A DNA stretch of 49,248 bases from a virus (lineage: Duplodnaviria > Heunggongvirae > Uroviricota > Caudoviricetes), in IMG/VR virus record IMGVR_UViG_2734482538_000012; one strand, written 5' to 3'. The position numbers and the translations under genes are program-made. This document shows, in pieces, positions 27,073 through 47,696 of this stretch. Below the pieces are notes generated by a model, which saw nothing but the letters and a program-made list of their open reading frames with translations, was not told where the DNA came from and did not search any database. Each line of letters starts with the position of its first letter. Within the stretch, counting starts at the first letter, position 1.

Positions 27073-28530
27073 TTAGGAGCGCCAAAAAAAACCTGAAAAC
27101 AATATAATAACAGGATAAATTTCAAGGCGACCAAGAATCATAGCTATGCACATTAAATATTTTGCAATGTCATTAAGCACTCCGAATGACGATGCAGTAG
27201 CCCCAAAACCTAATCCCATATTATTAATACATGCAGCCACTGTTGCAAATGATGTAAGAAAATCATATCCCATACCATTTAACACCAGTATAAAAAACAC
27301 CGTGAAGAGAGTATAAAGAAAAAAGAAACTCCATACAGACCTCATTACACGATCTGTAACTATCTTCCCTCCTACATTTACACTCAACAACGCTCTGGGA
27401 TGAGAAAGCTGATTTATCTCGTGTTTGCTTTGTTTGAAAAGTATAAGAAATCGAAGTGACTTAATTCCACCACAGGTTGAACCTATACATCCCCCAAAGA
27501 AACTTGACAACAGCAAAAACACTATCGTGTGCGTGGGCCAGTTTGCATAATCCTGCGTAGCTAAACCATTATCAGTGAGCATGGAGCTGGCAAGAAAAAA
27601 CGAATGAATAAAACTTCCATGCAAGTCATACATACCTATATGCCAGACCTGGAAAGAGGTAACAATGATCACCCCTAAGGCTATTAACAGAAAGAAACGA
27701 AGTTCAATATCTCTGATTAAAGGTTTTATCGTTTTTCTGCTAATAACAATATACCAAAGAGTGAAGTTGAAAGCCGATAGCAGGGAAAAAGAACCAGCCA
27801 CCAGCTCAACCAAATAGTTATTAAAATATCCGATACTCTCGCTATGAGTTGAGAAACCACCAAGCGAAACTGTGGAAATCCCGTGACAAATAGCATCAAA
27901 CAAAGGCATTCCTGCAAGTCTATAACAGACAATACAAGCAATACCTAATAAAGAATAAGTTATCCACAGTGTCCGTGACGTATCGGCCAGGCGGGGAGTG
28001 AGTTTGTCATCCTTAAATGGCCCCGGCATTTCTGACTGATAAAGCTTTGCACCACCAATACCCAATAATGGCAATACTGCAACCGCCAGAACAATAACTC
28101 CTAAACCACCTATAAAATTTAACTGTGACCGATAGTACAAATATGCCCGAGGTAATGAACTAACATCATCAATTACAGTTGCTCCTGTTGTTGTTATTCC
28201 AGAAACCCCTTCAAACAGAGCATCAATGAACGTTAAATTAAGTTCTGAGTCAATCCATAAAGGGAATGCACTAATAACAGAAAACAAAATCCAAAACATT
28301 ACAATTATAATAAACCCATCACGGGTACGTAATTGAATGCCAGATTTCTTAGTTGTATACCACGCTCCGCCACCAATGCAAAAAAATATAACGAAAGTTA
28401 TAAAGAAAACGAACAGGCTTTTTTCTTTATAAAACAATGCTACAACCATTGGTGGCAACATTGAAAGACTATAGAGCCAAACCAGGAACCCACACATATG
28501 AGTAACAACTCTTACATGAGATGTATTCAT
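27073..28530 (-). CDS. trkG: Trk-system potassium uptake protein TrkG (TrkH/KtrB family)
   Basis: Multi-pass membrane protein with repeated selectivity-filter-like glycine motifs (GITTTG, GLGVIV, SLGGFST, TCGGIKS); start MNTSHVRVVTHMCGFLVW at 28530 matches my recollection of K-12 Rac TrkG; markedly AT-rich relative to its flanks. Confidence 0.85.
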   Translation of the reverse strand: MNTSHVRVVTHMCGFLVWLYSLSMLPPMVVALFYKEKSLFVFFITFVIFFCIGGGAWYTTKKSGIQLRTRDGFIIIVMFWILFSVISAFPLWIDSELNLTFIDALFEGVSGITTTGATVIDDVSSLPRAYLYYRSQLNFIGGLGVIVLAVAVLPLLGIGGAKLYQSEMPGPFKDDKLTPRLADTSRTLWITYSLLGIACIVCYRLAGMPLFDAICHGISTVSLGGFSTHSESIGYFNNYLVELVAGSFSLLSAFNFTLWYIVISRKTIKPLIRDIELRFFLLIALGVIIVTSFQVWHIGMYDLHGSFIHSFFLASSMLTDNGLATQDYANWPTHTIVFLLLSSFFGGCIGSTCGGIKSLRFLILFKQSKHEINQLSHPRALLSVNVGGKIVTDRVMRSVWSFFFLYTLFTVFFILVLNGMGYDFLTSFATVAACINNMGLGFGATASSFGVLNDIAKYLMCIAMILGRLEIYPVIILFSGFFWRS

Positions 28531-28667
28531 ATCTAAATATTCTTTCAATTATAACCACCTTGCTGCAATATTATGATTATACTGTATAAAATTTAACTCC
28601 TCTTAGATCTTACTTCACTGTTCCTTATGAAACAATCATCAAAATGAATCATATTGTAGTTAAGATT

Positions 28668-29132
28668 TTACTTTAAACACTGCTCGGTTATGTATTGCTG
28701 AGCACCTTCAAGTTGGGCCTGCATCATTACCAGTCGTTCCCGGAGGGTGAAATAATCCCGTTCAGCGGTGTCTGCCAGTCGGGGGGAGGCTGCATTATCC
28801 ACGCCGGAGGCGGTGGTGGCTTCACGCACTGACTGACAGACTGCTTTGATGTGCAACCGACGACGACCAGCGGCAACATCATCACGCAGAGCATCATTTT
28901 CAGCTTTCGCATCAGCTAACTCCTTCGTGTATTTTGCATCGAGCGCAGCAACATCACGCTGACGCATCTGCATGTCAGTAATTGCCGCGTTCGCCAGCTT
29001 CAGTTCTCTGGCATTTTTGTCGCGCTGGGCTTTGTAGGTAATGGCGTTATCACGGTAATGATTAACAGCCCATGACAGGCAGACGATGATGCAGATAACC
29101 AGAGCGGAGATAATCGCGGTTACTCTGTTCAT
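28668..29132 (-). CDS. rzpR: Spanin, inner-membrane subunit (Rz)
   Basis: Track ORF 28668-29144; likely start [17 protein letters not shown] (N-terminal transmembrane segment) followed by a coiled-coil periplasmic region; directly downstream of the endolysin gene. Confidence 0.8.
28727..28912 (-). CDS. rzoR: Spanin, outer-membrane lipoprotein subunit (Rz1), embedded in Rz
   Basis: 61 aa ORF in the +1 frame entirely inside Rz; lipobox LVVVGC; proline-rich ([18 protein letters not shown]). Confidence 0.75.
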
Positions 29133-29626
29133 TGCTGACCCCACAAACAGATTTCACGCTCAATCTCACGACGAGTCATGAGACCTTTCCATTGCTTACC
29201 GCCAGCATATGTCCAGCGACGTAGCTGATCACATGCGCCTTTGATATCGCCCTGGTTTATTTTGCGAAGAAGCGTCGATGTTCTGAAATTGCCAGCGCCC
29301 ACGTTGTAAACGAATGAGTAAAGAGCGCCGCGCGTTGTTTCCGGTATATCGACTTTGATGTACGGGTTAATTTGTCTGGCGACAGTGGCAAGGTCTTTAT
29401 TCAAGAGTGTTTTGCATTCTGCTTTGGTATACGTTTTACCGAGCATGATGTCTTTTCCTGTATGCCCGTGACATACAGTCCATACACCAACAATATCTTT
29501 GTATGGTATGTAGCTGACACCTTCCAGACCATCGTTACCACTTGGGCCAGTGATTAACACTGATGCTATAGCAATTGCTCCGCCACCAATAGCAGCAGCA
29601 ACGACTTTTCGTAATGATGGAGGCAT
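29129..29626 (-). CDS. SAR endolysin (lysozyme, phage 21 R type)
   Basis: 165 aa; N-terminal Gly/Ala-rich signal-anchor-release segment ([16 protein letters not shown]); lysozyme core similar to phage 21 R as I recall it. Confidence 0.85.
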
Positions 29627-29841
29627 TATTCACCTCTCGCAGCCTTGCGCTTATCTTCTTTAATCTTGAAATAAAGGTTTGTCAGGTACGTCAGCAGGCC
29701 AAATACCAGACTACCCAGCACACCGATTGCAGCCCACTGTGACGGAGTTACTCTATCGAGCAACTGTAAAAACCAGTAGCCAGCACTGCCTGCGGAGGTG
29801 CCGTAGGCAATGCCTGTTGAAATTTTGTCCATGGATTTCAT
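29626..29841 (-). CDS. Pinholin (phage 21 S type) with dual-start motif
   Basis: Track ORF 29626-29898; [31 protein letters not shown]...[15 protein letters not shown] matches the S21 pinholin as I recall it; Met1-Lys-Ser-Met4 dual start gives 71 and 68 aa products. Confidence 0.8.
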
Positions 29842-30092
29842 AGCCTCACCTCCGCACGGAACGGATGGCATAGTTATTATGTGTAGGCTTTCAGACACAT
29901 CAATCAGAGCCTTAATTGATATATATGCTGGAGACGATGCAATATAAAAAGCTCGCCGTAGCGAGCTAATAAAATGTATTTCTCTGATATTATGTTTATT
30001 TGTATTAGCTCAGACTTGACATCACAGGTTTCGTATATAGAACATCATCAAATCTGTCAGTTTGCTATGAATGAGATATAGTAATTGAAGAG

Positions 30093-30488
30093 CTAACCTC
30101 GCATGTCAAAGCCAGATTTCTGAAAATCTCTGTAGACTTCCGGATTGTTGAAGGCCGGAAATTTGGCTTTATGAGCTGCGGACTTTATCGCTTCGCAATA
30201 GGCTTTATCACCGTTACTGGTAGATATTTTTAACGCCGTGCCATCCTGAGAGAATTCCATATGCAACCTGCATTTTTTCCCTTTCCAGTTATGCGGCTCA
30301 TCAAGTTTGGCATTAATTGCAGCTCTGATTCCCCGCGCTTGCGCCCCCCATTCATCCTGATCATCCCAGCGTCCTGAACTGCAACTACCTGTAGCAGTAG
30401 TTTTGTGGCAATCTGAAGGGTGTAAAGGTGTGCATCCCGCAACAAAACCGACCCAAAAAGTCAACATAACGATTTTCTTTAATCCCAC
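30093..30488 (-). CDS. Lipoprotein with TolA C-terminal (domain III)-like region
   Basis: 131 aa; signal peptide with lipobox (FVAGC); C-terminal ...KGKKCRLHMEFSQDGTALKISTSNGDKAYCEAIKSAAHKAKFPAFNNPEVYRDFQ is a paralogue of the adjacent gene and resembles TolA domain III. Confidence 0.6.
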   Translation of the reverse strand: MGLKKIVMLTFWVGFVAGCTPLHPSDCHKTTATGSCSSGRWDDQDEWGAQARGIRAAINAKLDEPHNWKGKKCRLHMEFSQDGTALKISTSNGDKAYCEAIKSAAHKAKFPAFNNPEVYRDFQKSGFDMRG

Positions 30489-30638
30489 TTCTTGCTCCTC
30501 AATCCATTAAAATCTCAGCAATAGTAGTTGTTACGTCCGCCACTGGCTCAGAGCTGACTATCCGCTAAATTTAGCTCAGTGCCGTAGCTGTGTCAGAACA
30601 AACCTAAGCCGAAACCGTTTATTACAAAACAATAAATA

Positions 30639-31067
30639 TCAGGGTTTAAAATCCAGCACCCCATTTTGAAATACTTTATATACTTCCGGCGAAGGGGGGG
30701 CAGGTATATCAGCATTCTTTATCGCATTCATCGCTTCACGACATAAATCGAGGTCTCCACTTTCTCTTTTAACCTCCAGTAGAAGGCCATTCGGGGCCAT
30801 ATGCATTCTCAGTGTACACTCTTTTCCTGAATACTTACTCGCATCCCCGAACTGTTTTTCGATGGCGCTCTTGATTTGATGGGCATACAGACGGATATCC
30901 TCACTAACATCAGAAGTACGTTCAGATGAACTCACATACTGTGTCTCTATTGCTTTATCGGAGTAATATGATGTACGGTCATGATAATTTGTCGATACAG
31001 CATCAGTGCACCCGATAATAATCCCACTAATAATCAACGTAAGAATTGATGCGCTACGAAAACCCAT
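30639..31067 (-). CDS. Lipoprotein with TolA C-terminal (domain III)-like region
   Basis: 142 aa; lipobox (IIGC); C-terminal YAHQIKSAIEKQFGDASKYSGKECTLRMHMAPNGLLLEVKRESGDLDLCREAMNAIKNADIPAPPSPEVYKVFQNGVLDFKP closely parallels the C-terminus of E. coli TolA as I recall it. Confidence 0.7.
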   Translation of the reverse strand: MGFRSASILTLIISGIIIGCTDAVSTNYHDRTSYYSDKAIETQYVSSSERTSDVSEDIRLYAHQIKSAIEKQFGDASKYSGKECTLRMHMAPNGLLLEVKRESGDLDLCREAMNAIKNADIPAPPSPEVYKVFQNGVLDFKP

Positions 31068-31655
31068 TTTTCCTCACATATGTCATATAGTAAAGGATTA
31101 TATATACCGTTGTTTTGGACGCTCAAACAGCGAATCAGATCAAATAAAACGCACATTTGTTAACATTTACACAAAGTCTGCGTGGGATATTCTGAAAGAA
31201 TATCCATAATGTGGAGAGAATCTATTGAAGTGCATGGTGCCGGGTGCCTCCCGGTGAACAAAATGTTCGTGATACCTGTCGGCGACAGAAAAGGTTAATG
31301 GTATCACCCCACCGCACAGGGGGATTCACCATGCAGGAGTTTTCTTAGCAAACTCACTGCGCGCCCGGCAACTCCCAACCACATAAAATGCGGAGTTTGT
31401 GGCATTTATGCATATAACTCGCAGGAATTATCTTAAAAAACTGATGTCGATCCGGATTAAAAAGAAGCAGGTCATCATCAGATGACTGGAAAAAAGGAAA
31501 ACAAAAAATACTCATCATACAGTTTTGATTGCAGGGATGAGCCTGCTATGCACAATATGCAGAATATAAGCAAGATAAAAATATGCAGGCATATTATTTC
31601 GGATCTTGTTATTAACACAACCTTTTTAATAATCATTTGGCATACAATAAACCAG

Positions 31656-31684
31656 CCCAAAAAGAACCGCCTAAACAGGCGGTT
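31656..31684 (-). terminator. Rho-independent terminator (minus-strand orientation) in the Q to lysis intergenic region
   Basis: Inverted repeat aaccgcct-aaac-aggcggtt; on the minus strand the stem is followed by cttttt. Coordinates approximate. Confidence 0.5.
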
Positions 31685-32003
31685 GGTCAATACAAAGGAT
31701 GCTTCGTCTTTATTATAGTAATCTGAGGCGTCGGGTGTCTTGTATCAGACAACATATTGTCCCGCTAAACAGCGAATTACAAACCACCCTGCAATGATCT
31801 CTCATCTCATTTTATATGAGTTGACGACATCAGGATAACGCATCATCAGCCCCTGCCAAGAAATATCAAAACTCCCGCCAGCAATGTGTTATCACAATAT
31901 TGTAAAAAAAACACAGCACCGAAACTATAACTGGTCTCTGTTATAATTTGGAGCAGAAAGACCAGTTGCCCAACTAGCAGCATTCTCCCCTGCTTTCCTG
32001 ACG

Positions 32004-32031
32004 TAAAAAAACCGCATTAAGCGGTTTTTTT
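32004..32031. terminator. Bidirectional hairpin terminator about 80 nt downstream of Q (candidate tR'-like element)
   Basis: aaaaaaaccgc-attaa-gcggttttttt: A-run, short GC stem, T-run, so it reads as a terminator on both strands. Confidence 0.5.
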
Positions 32032-32111
32032 ACGATGTCCATGTCTGCAATCCGCCTCGCGATACAGCTTTGCGAAGCATAGCAAAATTGAAGCAGTTTA
32101 TACGTAAGAAA

Positions 32112-32654
32112 TCAAGCCATTTTCTCAGCAAATGATTCACGCATGGGAATATATAGGGCATACTCAGCAACAGCTAACCAATTAGCAATCCGTTTTTCGC
32201 ATGTGCTAAAACACCACTCTGGGTGTGCATCATTTAGCAATTCAGCCATTTTGCGCTTAGTCATCCCCCGCCCTTCATAGCGTTGCCGGAGAATGCAAAT
32301 CAATCCTGGATGCTCTGCCAGCACCTCACTTATGACTCGATCAATACATAACGCCTCTGCATCAGTACAATGCGCCAGCCAGCTCTTTTGCTTGCCGTTG
32401 ATCATCTCTCGCAAAAACGCTTCCAGCTCAGCTTTCTCTATTCCCGCTTTTTTCATTCTGCGCAGGGCTTCATTAATGGCTGTTTTCGTCAGTTTTTTGG
32501 ATGCCAACAACTGATTGAACATATTCCCTGACCTGCCACCGCCAATATACGACCAGCGCCCCCACATACGTAGTTTTCCCTGAATCCAGACACTTTCCAG
32601 CGTGGTGAGGCGAAGGTGTTCTCCGCTTTTTCCTGTATTCGTTGGGTAAATCAT
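32112..32654 (-). CDS. Putative late-gene antitermination protein Q
   Basis: 180 aa ORF last in the nin-region operon and immediately upstream of the terminator/late region and lysis cassette; assignment mainly by position. Confidence 0.5.
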   Translation of the reverse strand: MIYPTNTGKSGEHLRLTTLESVWIQGKLRMWGRWSYIGGGRSGNMFNQLLASKKLTKTAINEALRRMKKAGIEKAELEAFLREMINGKQKSWLAHCTDAEALCIDRVISEVLAEHPGLICILRQRYEGRGMTKRKMAELLNDAHPEWCFSTCEKRIANWLAVAEYALYIPMRESFAEKMA

Positions 32655-47507: not shown

Positions 47508-47696
47508 ATGTATAAAATTACCGCCACTATTGAAAAGGAAGGTGGCACTCCTACTAACTGGACAAGATATTCAAAATCTAAACTAACGAAATCAGAATGC
47601 GAAAAAATGCTCTCAGGTAAAAAAGAAGCAGGCGTTTCCAGAGAGCAGAAAGTAAAACTGATAAATTTTAATTGCGAGAAACTTCAGTCCTCGTGA
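47508..47696 (+). CDS. ydaC: YdaC-like small protein
   Basis: Track ORF 47436-47696; likely start MYKITATIEKEGGTPTNWTRY at 47508 preceded by ggagg; gene order ralR / ydaC / xis as in Rac. Confidence 0.6.
   Translation: MYKITATIEKEGGTPTNWTRYSKSKLTKSECEKMLSGKKEAGVSREQKVKLINFNCEKLQSS

Follow-up and report, generated by a model that had tools for sequence, protein, structure and literature searches.

Both group A colicins and filamentous phages gain entry through domain III of TolA (TolAIII), the hub with which Tol-dependent colicins and these phages have to interact. An excess of this domain in the periplasm reportedly causes leakiness in wild-type Escherichia coli, together with tolerance to colicins E1, E2, E3 and A; the observation is attributed to Levengood-Freyermuth, Click and Webster in 1993. 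Mobile elements are known to guard their carriers against phages or DNA with small outer-membrane lipoproteins, often encoded as morons, including Cor (phi80, N15 and mEp phages), Llp (T5) and TraT (F). Filamentous-phage g3p expressed by the host gives superinfection immunity by occupying TolA, and is accompanied by tol-like envelope defects. The present analysis concerns a 49,248-nucleotide stretch of a lambdoid prophage (IMG/VR virus record IMGVR_UViG_2734482538_000012; hereafter the window, whose positions are used throughout), and a pair of genes at 30093-31067, here called A and B. They lie between the phage Q and holin genes of a Rac-site prophage, and encode predicted lipoproteins that carry a copy of TolAIII (mini-TolA lipoproteins).

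Sequence comparison and structure modelling confirmed the predicted organisation of each gene product as a lipoprotein signal, a linker and a TolA domain III. The TolA-like C-terminus had been proposed in the initial annotation, and the proposal held both in alignment with TolA and in superposition of the structure models. Gene A (30639..31067, minus strand) encodes a protein of 142 amino acids and gene B (30093..30488, minus strand) one of 131 amino acids, each delineated from its open reading frame (ORF), Pfam matches, TolA entries in the PDB, and AlphaFold2 models searched with Foldseek. The domain occupies residues 55-142 of A (30642..30905, minus strand), with a Cys84-Cys109 pair and a C-terminal LDFKP strand, and residues 49-131 of B (30096..30344, minus strand), with a Cys73-Cys98 pair. 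The Pfam family PF06519 (TolA_C) matched A at 82.6 bits (E 2.4e-23) and B at 54.6 bits (E 1.3e-14), both above the gathering score of 25 bits. In phmmer comparisons with the solved E. coli TolA, residues 55-142 of A aligned without gaps on TolA 334-421 (E 5e-28), and B aligned on TolA 341-419 (E 5e-9). The identity to E. coli TolA was 60% over 86 residues for A and 34% over 77 residues for B.

The AlphaFold2 models had a predicted local distance difference test (pLDDT) score of approximately 90 across the domain of both proteins (86-96 in B), preceded by disordered residues 1-50 in A and 1-39 in B. The top Foldseek matches were TolAIII structures, with template modelling (TM) scores of 0.81-0.91 and a root-mean-square deviation (rmsd) of 0.9-2.2 Å overall. 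For the A model these included 2x9a_B (TM 0.91), from the complex of If1 g3p with TolA, and 1tol (rmsd 0.9 Å); for the B model, 3qdp was matched with a TM score of 0.90 and an rmsd of 1.1 Å. DSSP assigned no C-terminal beta3 strand in the A model. The disulfide cysteine pair, equivalent to TolA C363 and C388, was kept in A, B and every mini-TolA examined.

The fold, the Pfam family and the cysteine pair are thus common to A, B and E. coli TolA domain III (approximately residues 334-421; PDB 1S62, 3QDP, 1TOL and 2X9A), and A also matches TolA throughout the LDFKP beta3 strand and at half of the colicin A site. Unlike TolA, however, A and B have neither the TolQR-coupling anchor nor domain II; a lipoprotein signal and a short linker stand in their place, so that neither protein can transmit the proton-motive force, and the genes lie outside the tolQRA-tolB-pal operon. 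The NF007065 model of TolA proper (cut-off 213 bits) gave 107.8 bits for A and 53.7 bits for B, with matches to positions 293-386 of its 387 alone. TIGR02794 (cut-off 59.45) gave 75.6 bits for A, which is above the cut-off on score alone and covers positions 265-362 only, and 47.2 bits for B, which is below it. The identification of A and B as TolA proper was therefore rejected, given the missing membrane anchor and helical domain II, the NF007065 scores below the cut-off and the location outside the tolQRA-tolB-pal cluster.

The lipoprotein signal peptides were predicted at 31008..31067 (minus strand) in A, comprising residues 1-20 with the lipobox I-I-G-C, and at 30432..30488 (minus strand) in B, comprising residues 1-19 with the lipobox V-A-G-C; Cys20 and Cys19 are the residues predicted to be lipidated, and the +2 residue is threonine in both. 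The N-terminus reads MGFRSASILTLIISGIIIGC followed by TD in A, and MGLKKIVMLTFWVGFVAGC followed by TP in B. The lipoboxes IIGC and FVAGC named in the initial annotation are therefore present. Both proteins have the features of a lipoprotein signal, namely a charged n-region (R4 in A; K4 and K5 in B), a hydrophobic h-region and a lipobox of the form [LVI][ASTVI][GAS]C (IIGC and VAGC, respectively). The strict lipobox pattern was found in 115 of 120 cluster representatives of the B family and in 24 of 30 full-length representatives of the A family. The +2 residue in the A- and B-family representatives was threonine, alanine, serine, glycine or valine, with alanine, threonine or serine in the B family, and was never aspartate. 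Because the +2 residue is not aspartate, the Lol sorting rule predicts that A and B are anchored in the outer membrane, facing the periplasm. The linker ahead of the domain is 27-35 residues long in the two proteins and predicted to be disordered; in A it comprises the variable residues 21-54 (30906..31007, minus strand), and pLDDT was below 50 for residues 1-50.

The start codons of both genes are well supported. Gene A begins with ATG at 31067 and ends with a stop codon at 30639-30641, and the Shine-Dalgarno sequence GAGGA lies at 31071-31075, three nucleotides before the ATG. Gene B begins with GTG at 30488 and ends at 30093-30095; GAGGAG lies six nucleotides before the GTG, which is ATG in the plasmid homologues of B. 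The interval first marked out for the pair was exact at both ends, position 30093 being the last stop-codon base of B and 31067 the first ATG base of A, both on the minus strand. In the RefSeq annotation of an identical region (strain ECCHD184), made by the Prokaryotic Genome Annotation Pipeline (PGAP), A is a tolA pseudogene, described as 'incomplete; missing N-terminus', and B is a 124-amino-acid model from an inner methionine, with loss of the charged n-region of the signal peptide. Both calls look wrong. The RefSeq names for A differ among genomes, being tolA pseudogene in some and 'cell envelope integrity protein TolA' in others, and the RefSeq start of B is the inner methionine on the chromosome and an upstream codon (143 amino acids) on plasmids. 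The current labels 'TolA' and 'tolA pseudogene' both mislead for mini-TolA genes. The interpretation of A as a pseudogene or tolA fragment was rejected, as the ORF is intact, comes with a Shine-Dalgarno sequence, an ATG and a signal peptide of its own, is under purifying selection, and has no DNA similarity to the host tolA.

To compare the ligand surfaces, the residues named in published papers were used, rather than coordinates. In the published structures, the colicin A site on TolA is beta2 (L375-P380), with K368, K379 and K396 contributing cation-pi contacts; beta3 (A415-K420) is the edge at which g3p-N1, colicin N or the TolB N-terminus is added as a further strand (strand augmentation). 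The beta3 site of A reads GVLDFK and is identical to TolA at four of six positions, with LDFK (L417, D418, F419 and K420) intact. At the colicin A site, A is identical at four of eight positions (L375, L376, K379 and K396 are kept), with additional D-to-E and I-to-V replacements. In B, the beta3 site reads SGFDMR, and E, S and H stand in place of the three colicin A-site lysines. Two independent mini-TolAs from Klebsiella plasmids have kept LDFR at beta3 and lost the colicin A site. By sequence, the beta3 edge is the surface most consistently kept across independent mini-TolA lineages.

The reading that we favour, tentatively and at a little under an even chance, is that A and B are tethered to the outer membrane and act as decoys for the ligands of TolA, namely group A colicins, filamentous-phage g3p and TolB. 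The proteins would leave the cytoplasm through Sec, receive their lipid on the lipobox cysteine and be delivered to the outer membrane, where they would sit in the inner leaflet with the stand-alone TolAIII hanging on its linker into the periplasm. There, the domain would capture Tol-dependent (group A) colicins by their translocation domains and g3p by its N1 domain, and would bind the TolB N-terminus more weakly. A ligand trapped on a domain that is incompetent for force would go nowhere, and the lysogen could thus be tolerant to colicins, phages or both. Expression in the lysogen would come from the pair's own promoter, with a high level from the Q-dependent late transcript upon induction. 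This proposal, which the initial annotation had raised alongside modulation of Tol-Pal, is consistent with the retention in A of the beta3 edge LDFK and half of the colicin A site; the presence of relatives beside a Tol-dependent bacteriocin operon and on conjugative plasmids is circumstantial evidence in the same direction.

Engineered periplasmic TolAIII (Levengood-Freyermuth et al. 1993; Wan and Baneyx 1998) is likewise a stand-alone exported domain, and is the direct experimental precedent for colicin tolerance and a leaky outer membrane. It is, however, soluble, overproduced and of host sequence, whereas A and B are natural, diverged and predicted to be lipid-anchored, and B adds a conserved motif. 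Export of TolAIII has been used to release periplasmic proteins. The binding of TolA to TolB is weak, with a Kd of 40-200 µM according to a Tol-Pal review, and a modest level of decoy could therefore intercept tighter-binding invaders with limited damage to Tol-Pal. Cor, Llp and TraT are unrelated to A and B in sequence and block an outer-membrane receptor (FhuA, OmpA), whereas A and B would mimic a periplasmic co-receptor. In g3p-mediated immunity the same TolAIII-g3p contact is disturbed, but there the phage ligand saturates the host receptor, while here a copy of the receptor would saturate the incoming ligand.

The two proteins are 29% identical to each other. The ratio of nonsynonymous to synonymous substitution rates (omega) between two A alleles was 0.29 in the domain and 0.42 in the linker, and most of the allelic variation in A lies in the signal peptide and linker. 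In B, the omega of the domain was 0.06-0.11. The domains of both proteins are thus under purifying selection. The initial annotation had taken two divergent paralogues as a suggestion of diversification; this was not borne out, as A and B are separate lineages with different distributions and constrained domains. Diversifying selection at the ligand surfaces was not seen, the A alleles differing mainly in the signal peptide and linker, with a domain omega below 0.3. A recent duplication within the phage was also rejected, given the low identity and the differing taxonomic ranges of the two.

Residues 20-48 of B (30345..30431, minus strand) form an N-terminal Cys/Trp/acidic motif, TPLHPSDCHKTTATGSCSSGRWDDQDEWG, which includes two extra cysteines and an acidic W-x5-W-G stretch, and has an AlphaFold2 pLDDT of approximately 40. 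This motif is more constrained than the B domain, with a column entropy of 0.20 versus 0.35 bits and an omega of 0.01-0.10. Its identification as a colicin TolB box was considered and rejected: the core DG[ST]GWSSE is not matched by SSGRWDDQDEWG, in which the first tryptophan alone aligns, and the offset between the two tryptophans is six residues in SSGRWDDQDEWG versus seven in ColE9.

The distribution of the genes was examined in 5426 complete E. coli genomes. Blastn with 11-nucleotide words found gene A in 898 genomes, nearly always on the chromosome. As every genome carries tolA, and A matched these 898 only, A has no DNA-level similarity to the host tolA. Gene B was found in 1269 genomes, with 826 of its locations on chromosomes and 536 on plasmids, and the pair was present at 99% identity or more in approximately 780 genomes (~14%). 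A-family proteins were restricted to Escherichia and Shigella; a scan of one genome per species for A-related loci, which was pattern-based and picks up close relatives only, returned a Shigella locus alone. B-family proteins 78-89% identical were present on the chromosomes of Citrobacter, Enterobacter, Serratia, Klebsiella and Raoultella, where they are encoded by single genes at a different location in every genus inspected. The DNA homology among the B copies ends approximately 30 nucleotides upstream of the ORF, and the synonymous divergence (dS) of B between genera is approximately 0.5-0.7. The short upstream homology and the low dS therefore point to horizontal spread of a tight B gene cassette. 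When 1.84 billion representatives were searched with a profile, 575 matched; among the best 150 of these, 76 are 105-170 amino acids long, and at least 55 of the 76 have a lipobox. From these counts, the mini-TolA lipoproteins constitute a large family.

Approximately 600 plasmids carry a copy of B that is 88% identical. On conjugative plasmids of the I complex, a B-like gene directly follows the relaxase genes nikA-nikB, lying 68 nucleotides past nikB in all five plasmids inspected (loci L007 and L014-L017; IncK2/Z, IncI1/B/O), and may be co-transcribed with the relaxase operon. On pO157, the B-like gene is in the leading region after hok. The 10-kb ColRNAI plasmids of Klebsiella (L002, NZ_CP028788.2, 5908-6641) carry a mini-TolA lipoprotein gene that overlaps by four nucleotides the start of a gene for a mini-TonB, a Sec-signal protein made up of a TonB C-terminal domain (TonB_C match, E 9e-11), so that the two are translationally coupled. 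This pair, in which stand-alone versions of the two energy-transducer domains occur side by side, adjoins a cloacin/colicin E3-like bacteriocin, immunity and lysis operon. A second case of a mini-TolA near a putative mini-TonB was noted in Raoultella terrigena (L020, 5001-6475), where a DUF2251 gene comes next after the B-family gene, ahead of a gene for a 111-amino-acid signal-peptide protein with a possible lipobox (LLAVC) and a weak TonB_C match.

The lipobox, linker and TolAIII arrangement of A and B is shared by the plasmid TolA_C lipoproteins WP_001237044 (Klebsiella ColRNAI klebicin/cloacin plasmid, with the adjacent mini-TonB), WP_001567367 (Klebsiella IncF), and WP_001453090 and WP_001335086 (pO157, IncK/IncB/O). 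Identity to B is 88% for the pO157 and IncK proteins, while the Klebsiella plasmid mini-TolAs are only 28-33% identical to A. These plasmid relatives differ from A and B in their context, which is a bacteriocin operon, a relaxase operon or a leading region. Defence genes were found near mini-TolA genes in three of approximately 13 contexts inspected, an anecdotal count in which most contexts were neutral. They comprised an NsnA homologue adjoining the Serratia B-family gene (L012, 6957-8078), a complete Gabija pair (GajA/GajB) approximately 3 kb from the Klebsiella IncF plasmid mini-TolA (L008, 255-3394), and a BrxA fragment approximately 1 kb from the IncK plasmid mini-TolA (L007, 10338-10577).

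The pili of I-complex-type plasmids serve as receptors for filamentous phages whose co-receptor is TolAIII. A broader proposal, which we regard as rather doubtful, is that the mini-TolA proteins and, on some elements, mini-TonB proteins, each the exported C-terminal domain of one of the envelope's two energy transducers, form a widespread, unrecognised class of decoy immunity on prophages, conjugative plasmids and bacteriocin plasmids, directed against Tol- and Ton-dependent bacteriocins and pilus-specific filamentous phages. Under that proposal, a mini-TolA on a conjugative plasmid would offset the vulnerability to phage created by the plasmid's own pilus.

Annotation of the window with PHROGs placed a Q-like anti-termination protein at 32112-32654, upstream of the pair, and the holin (29626-29841), endolysin (29129-29626) and Rz/Rz1 spanins downstream of it, in agreement with the location between Q and the lysis genes given in the initial annotation. 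On the coding strand, Q is followed by a hairpin, an STnc100 gene, a promoter-like site, A, a 150-nucleotide spacer, B, a terminator and the holin gene. A candidate sigma-70-like promoter (31097..31126, minus strand; TTGAGC-18-TATAAT, with 10 of 12 consensus matches) lies approximately 30 nucleotides before the ATG of A. Between B and the holin gene is an intrinsic terminator (29950..29967, minus strand), in which AGCTCGC-TACG-GCGAGC is followed by a U run; its folding free energy (dG) was -13 kcal/mol (z -4.9), and none of 200 shuffles was as stable. No comparable hairpin was found in the spacer between A and B when folding was compared with shuffles (z -0.43), and A and B are therefore probably one transcription unit.

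The small RNA (sRNA) gene STnc100 (31178..31364, minus strand; Rfam RF02076, 86.6 bits versus a gathering score of 47) lies between Q and A. According to a 2026 preprint, STnc100 is a relative of the PasD prophage sRNAs, next to which Q and lpxR are conserved. The part of the window from 31355 to 29625, which includes the sRNA, A, B, the terminator and the holin gene, is 96.9% identical to phage mEp460, which has the same sRNA-A-B-holin module in combination with another Q and another endolysin. Approximately 80 nucleotides past the Q stop codon, a hairpin with a U run (approximately 32008-32033, minus strand) had a dG of -19.7 kcal/mol (z -7.8); it was absent from the output of a consensus-based scan. 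Further downstream of Q, another promoter-like site (31712-31741) was noted, with a terminator (31665-31684) after it. The hairpin and these two sites are possibly a late promoter/terminator region acted on by Q.

A divergent A allele (approximately 66% amino acid identity) occurs alone in a Stx-like prophage of E. coli 2014C-3097 (L018, 4947-5375). It follows Q, a DNA methyltransferase gene, tRNA-Ile and tRNA-Arg, which is the usual stx position, and a gene for a SASA-family esterase lies downstream. A tblastn search of 50,697 phage records found the A/B unit in one only, and it is missing from many lambdoid phages. By its distribution and context, the unit appears moron-like. Directly after Rz/Rz1, the window also carries trkG (27073-28548, minus strand), a potassium transporter gene with a GC content of approximately 0.33-0.41, as a second cargo gene of the Rac-site prophage. 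The RalA antitoxin sRNA (47514-47692) and the IS009 RNA (256-454) were also identified within the window.

Several observations weigh against the decoy proposal. B is without the three lysines of the colicin A site and reads FDMR at beta3 in place of LDFK, and its most constrained part is the N-terminal motif, which a decoy model leaves unexplained. B-family genes are also found as single genes in ordinary-looking chromosomal surroundings in Enterobacter kobei, Klebsiella oxytoca and Serratia fonticola, and such settings fit a housekeeping envelope role as well as they fit defence. Free TolAIII is harmful at a high dose, causing leakiness, and a constitutive decoy would be costly. The promoter ahead of A is a consensus match only, in a region with 11 such sites versus 7.0 +/- 2.7 in shuffles, which is no significant enrichment. 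No PADLOC-DB family matched A or B at E <= 0.1, and the PHROGs family that contains them, phrog_5772, is listed as of 'unknown function'. The constraint on the B motif, together with the divergence in B of the known TolA ligand sites, fits a different account, in which at least B is an envelope protein with an endogenous partner of its own, engaged through the Cys/Trp motif and a re-purposed TolAIII fold, and is carried by mobile elements for a physiological benefit that has nothing to do with colicins or phages, for example in stress tolerance or envelope homeostasis. B is, moreover, a stable single gene in non-phage chromosomal settings of several genera. However, even genera as far apart as Serratia and Escherichia differ by a dS of only approximately 0.5-0.7, which points to recent horizontal spread rather than vertical housekeeping descent. 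The change of location from genus to genus, the plasmid copies in transfer or leading regions and the defence genes adjoining B in Serratia also run counter to this account, and we judge it improbable.

Alternatively, the pair may serve the phage itself. As Tol-Pal modulators, late-expressed and tethered copies of TolAIII would titrate TolB, and possibly CpoB, from TolA, and the resulting transient tol phenotype (a loosened outer membrane, hypervesiculation and blocked constriction) would aid lysis and release or shed receptor-bearing vesicles. Taken as a whole, mechanism and effect together, this seems unlikely to us. It would account for a pair in the late operon directly upstream of the holin gene and inherited with it as one module in two phages, and for the conservation of beta3, the TolB site, as the best-kept surface of the mini-TolA lineages. 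Periplasmic TolAIII is also said to make cells leaky. A Tol-Pal review suggests that the production of outer-membrane vesicles could be regulated through TolB interactions. The phage, however, already has a full holin, endolysin and Rz/Rz1 set, and a terminator separates B from the holin gene. The A allele in the stx position is far from lysis genes, none of which were near the B-family genes on the plasmids and chromosomes inspected, and the affinity of TolA for TolB is low. The remaining explanation, that A and B are non-functional debris, decaying fragments of tolA picked up by the phage, could draw on the PGAP pseudogene flag in strain ECCHD184 and on the presence of the C-terminal third of TolA alone. 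It is very improbable, and is effectively refuted by the present evidence: both ORFs are intact, each with a Shine-Dalgarno sequence, start codon and lipoprotein signal peptide; omega is below 0.3 across the domain; and A is present in 898 genomes as several alleles that all keep the domain, with no DNA-level similarity to the host tolA.

The TolA_C domain family, the NCBI product names and PHROG 5772 are already known, and a full-text literature search found no published functional study of these mini-TolA lipoproteins. A and B are mobile-element lipoproteins that probably protect their host, and would do so by mimicking a periplasmic co-receptor rather than by blocking an outer-membrane receptor. 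If A, B and their relatives do work as natural decoys, approximately 14-23% of sequenced E. coli would carry an unappreciated determinant of colicin or phage tolerance, which would likewise be present on many IncI-complex, IncF and bacteriocin plasmids. This would bear on strain competition in the gut, on colicin- and phage-based therapeutics, on M13-type phages directed against plasmid-bearing strains, and on the limits of Tol-Pal perturbation in vivo. Mobile elements would then be seen to protect their hosts in one further way, by mimicry of a receptor domain in the periplasm.

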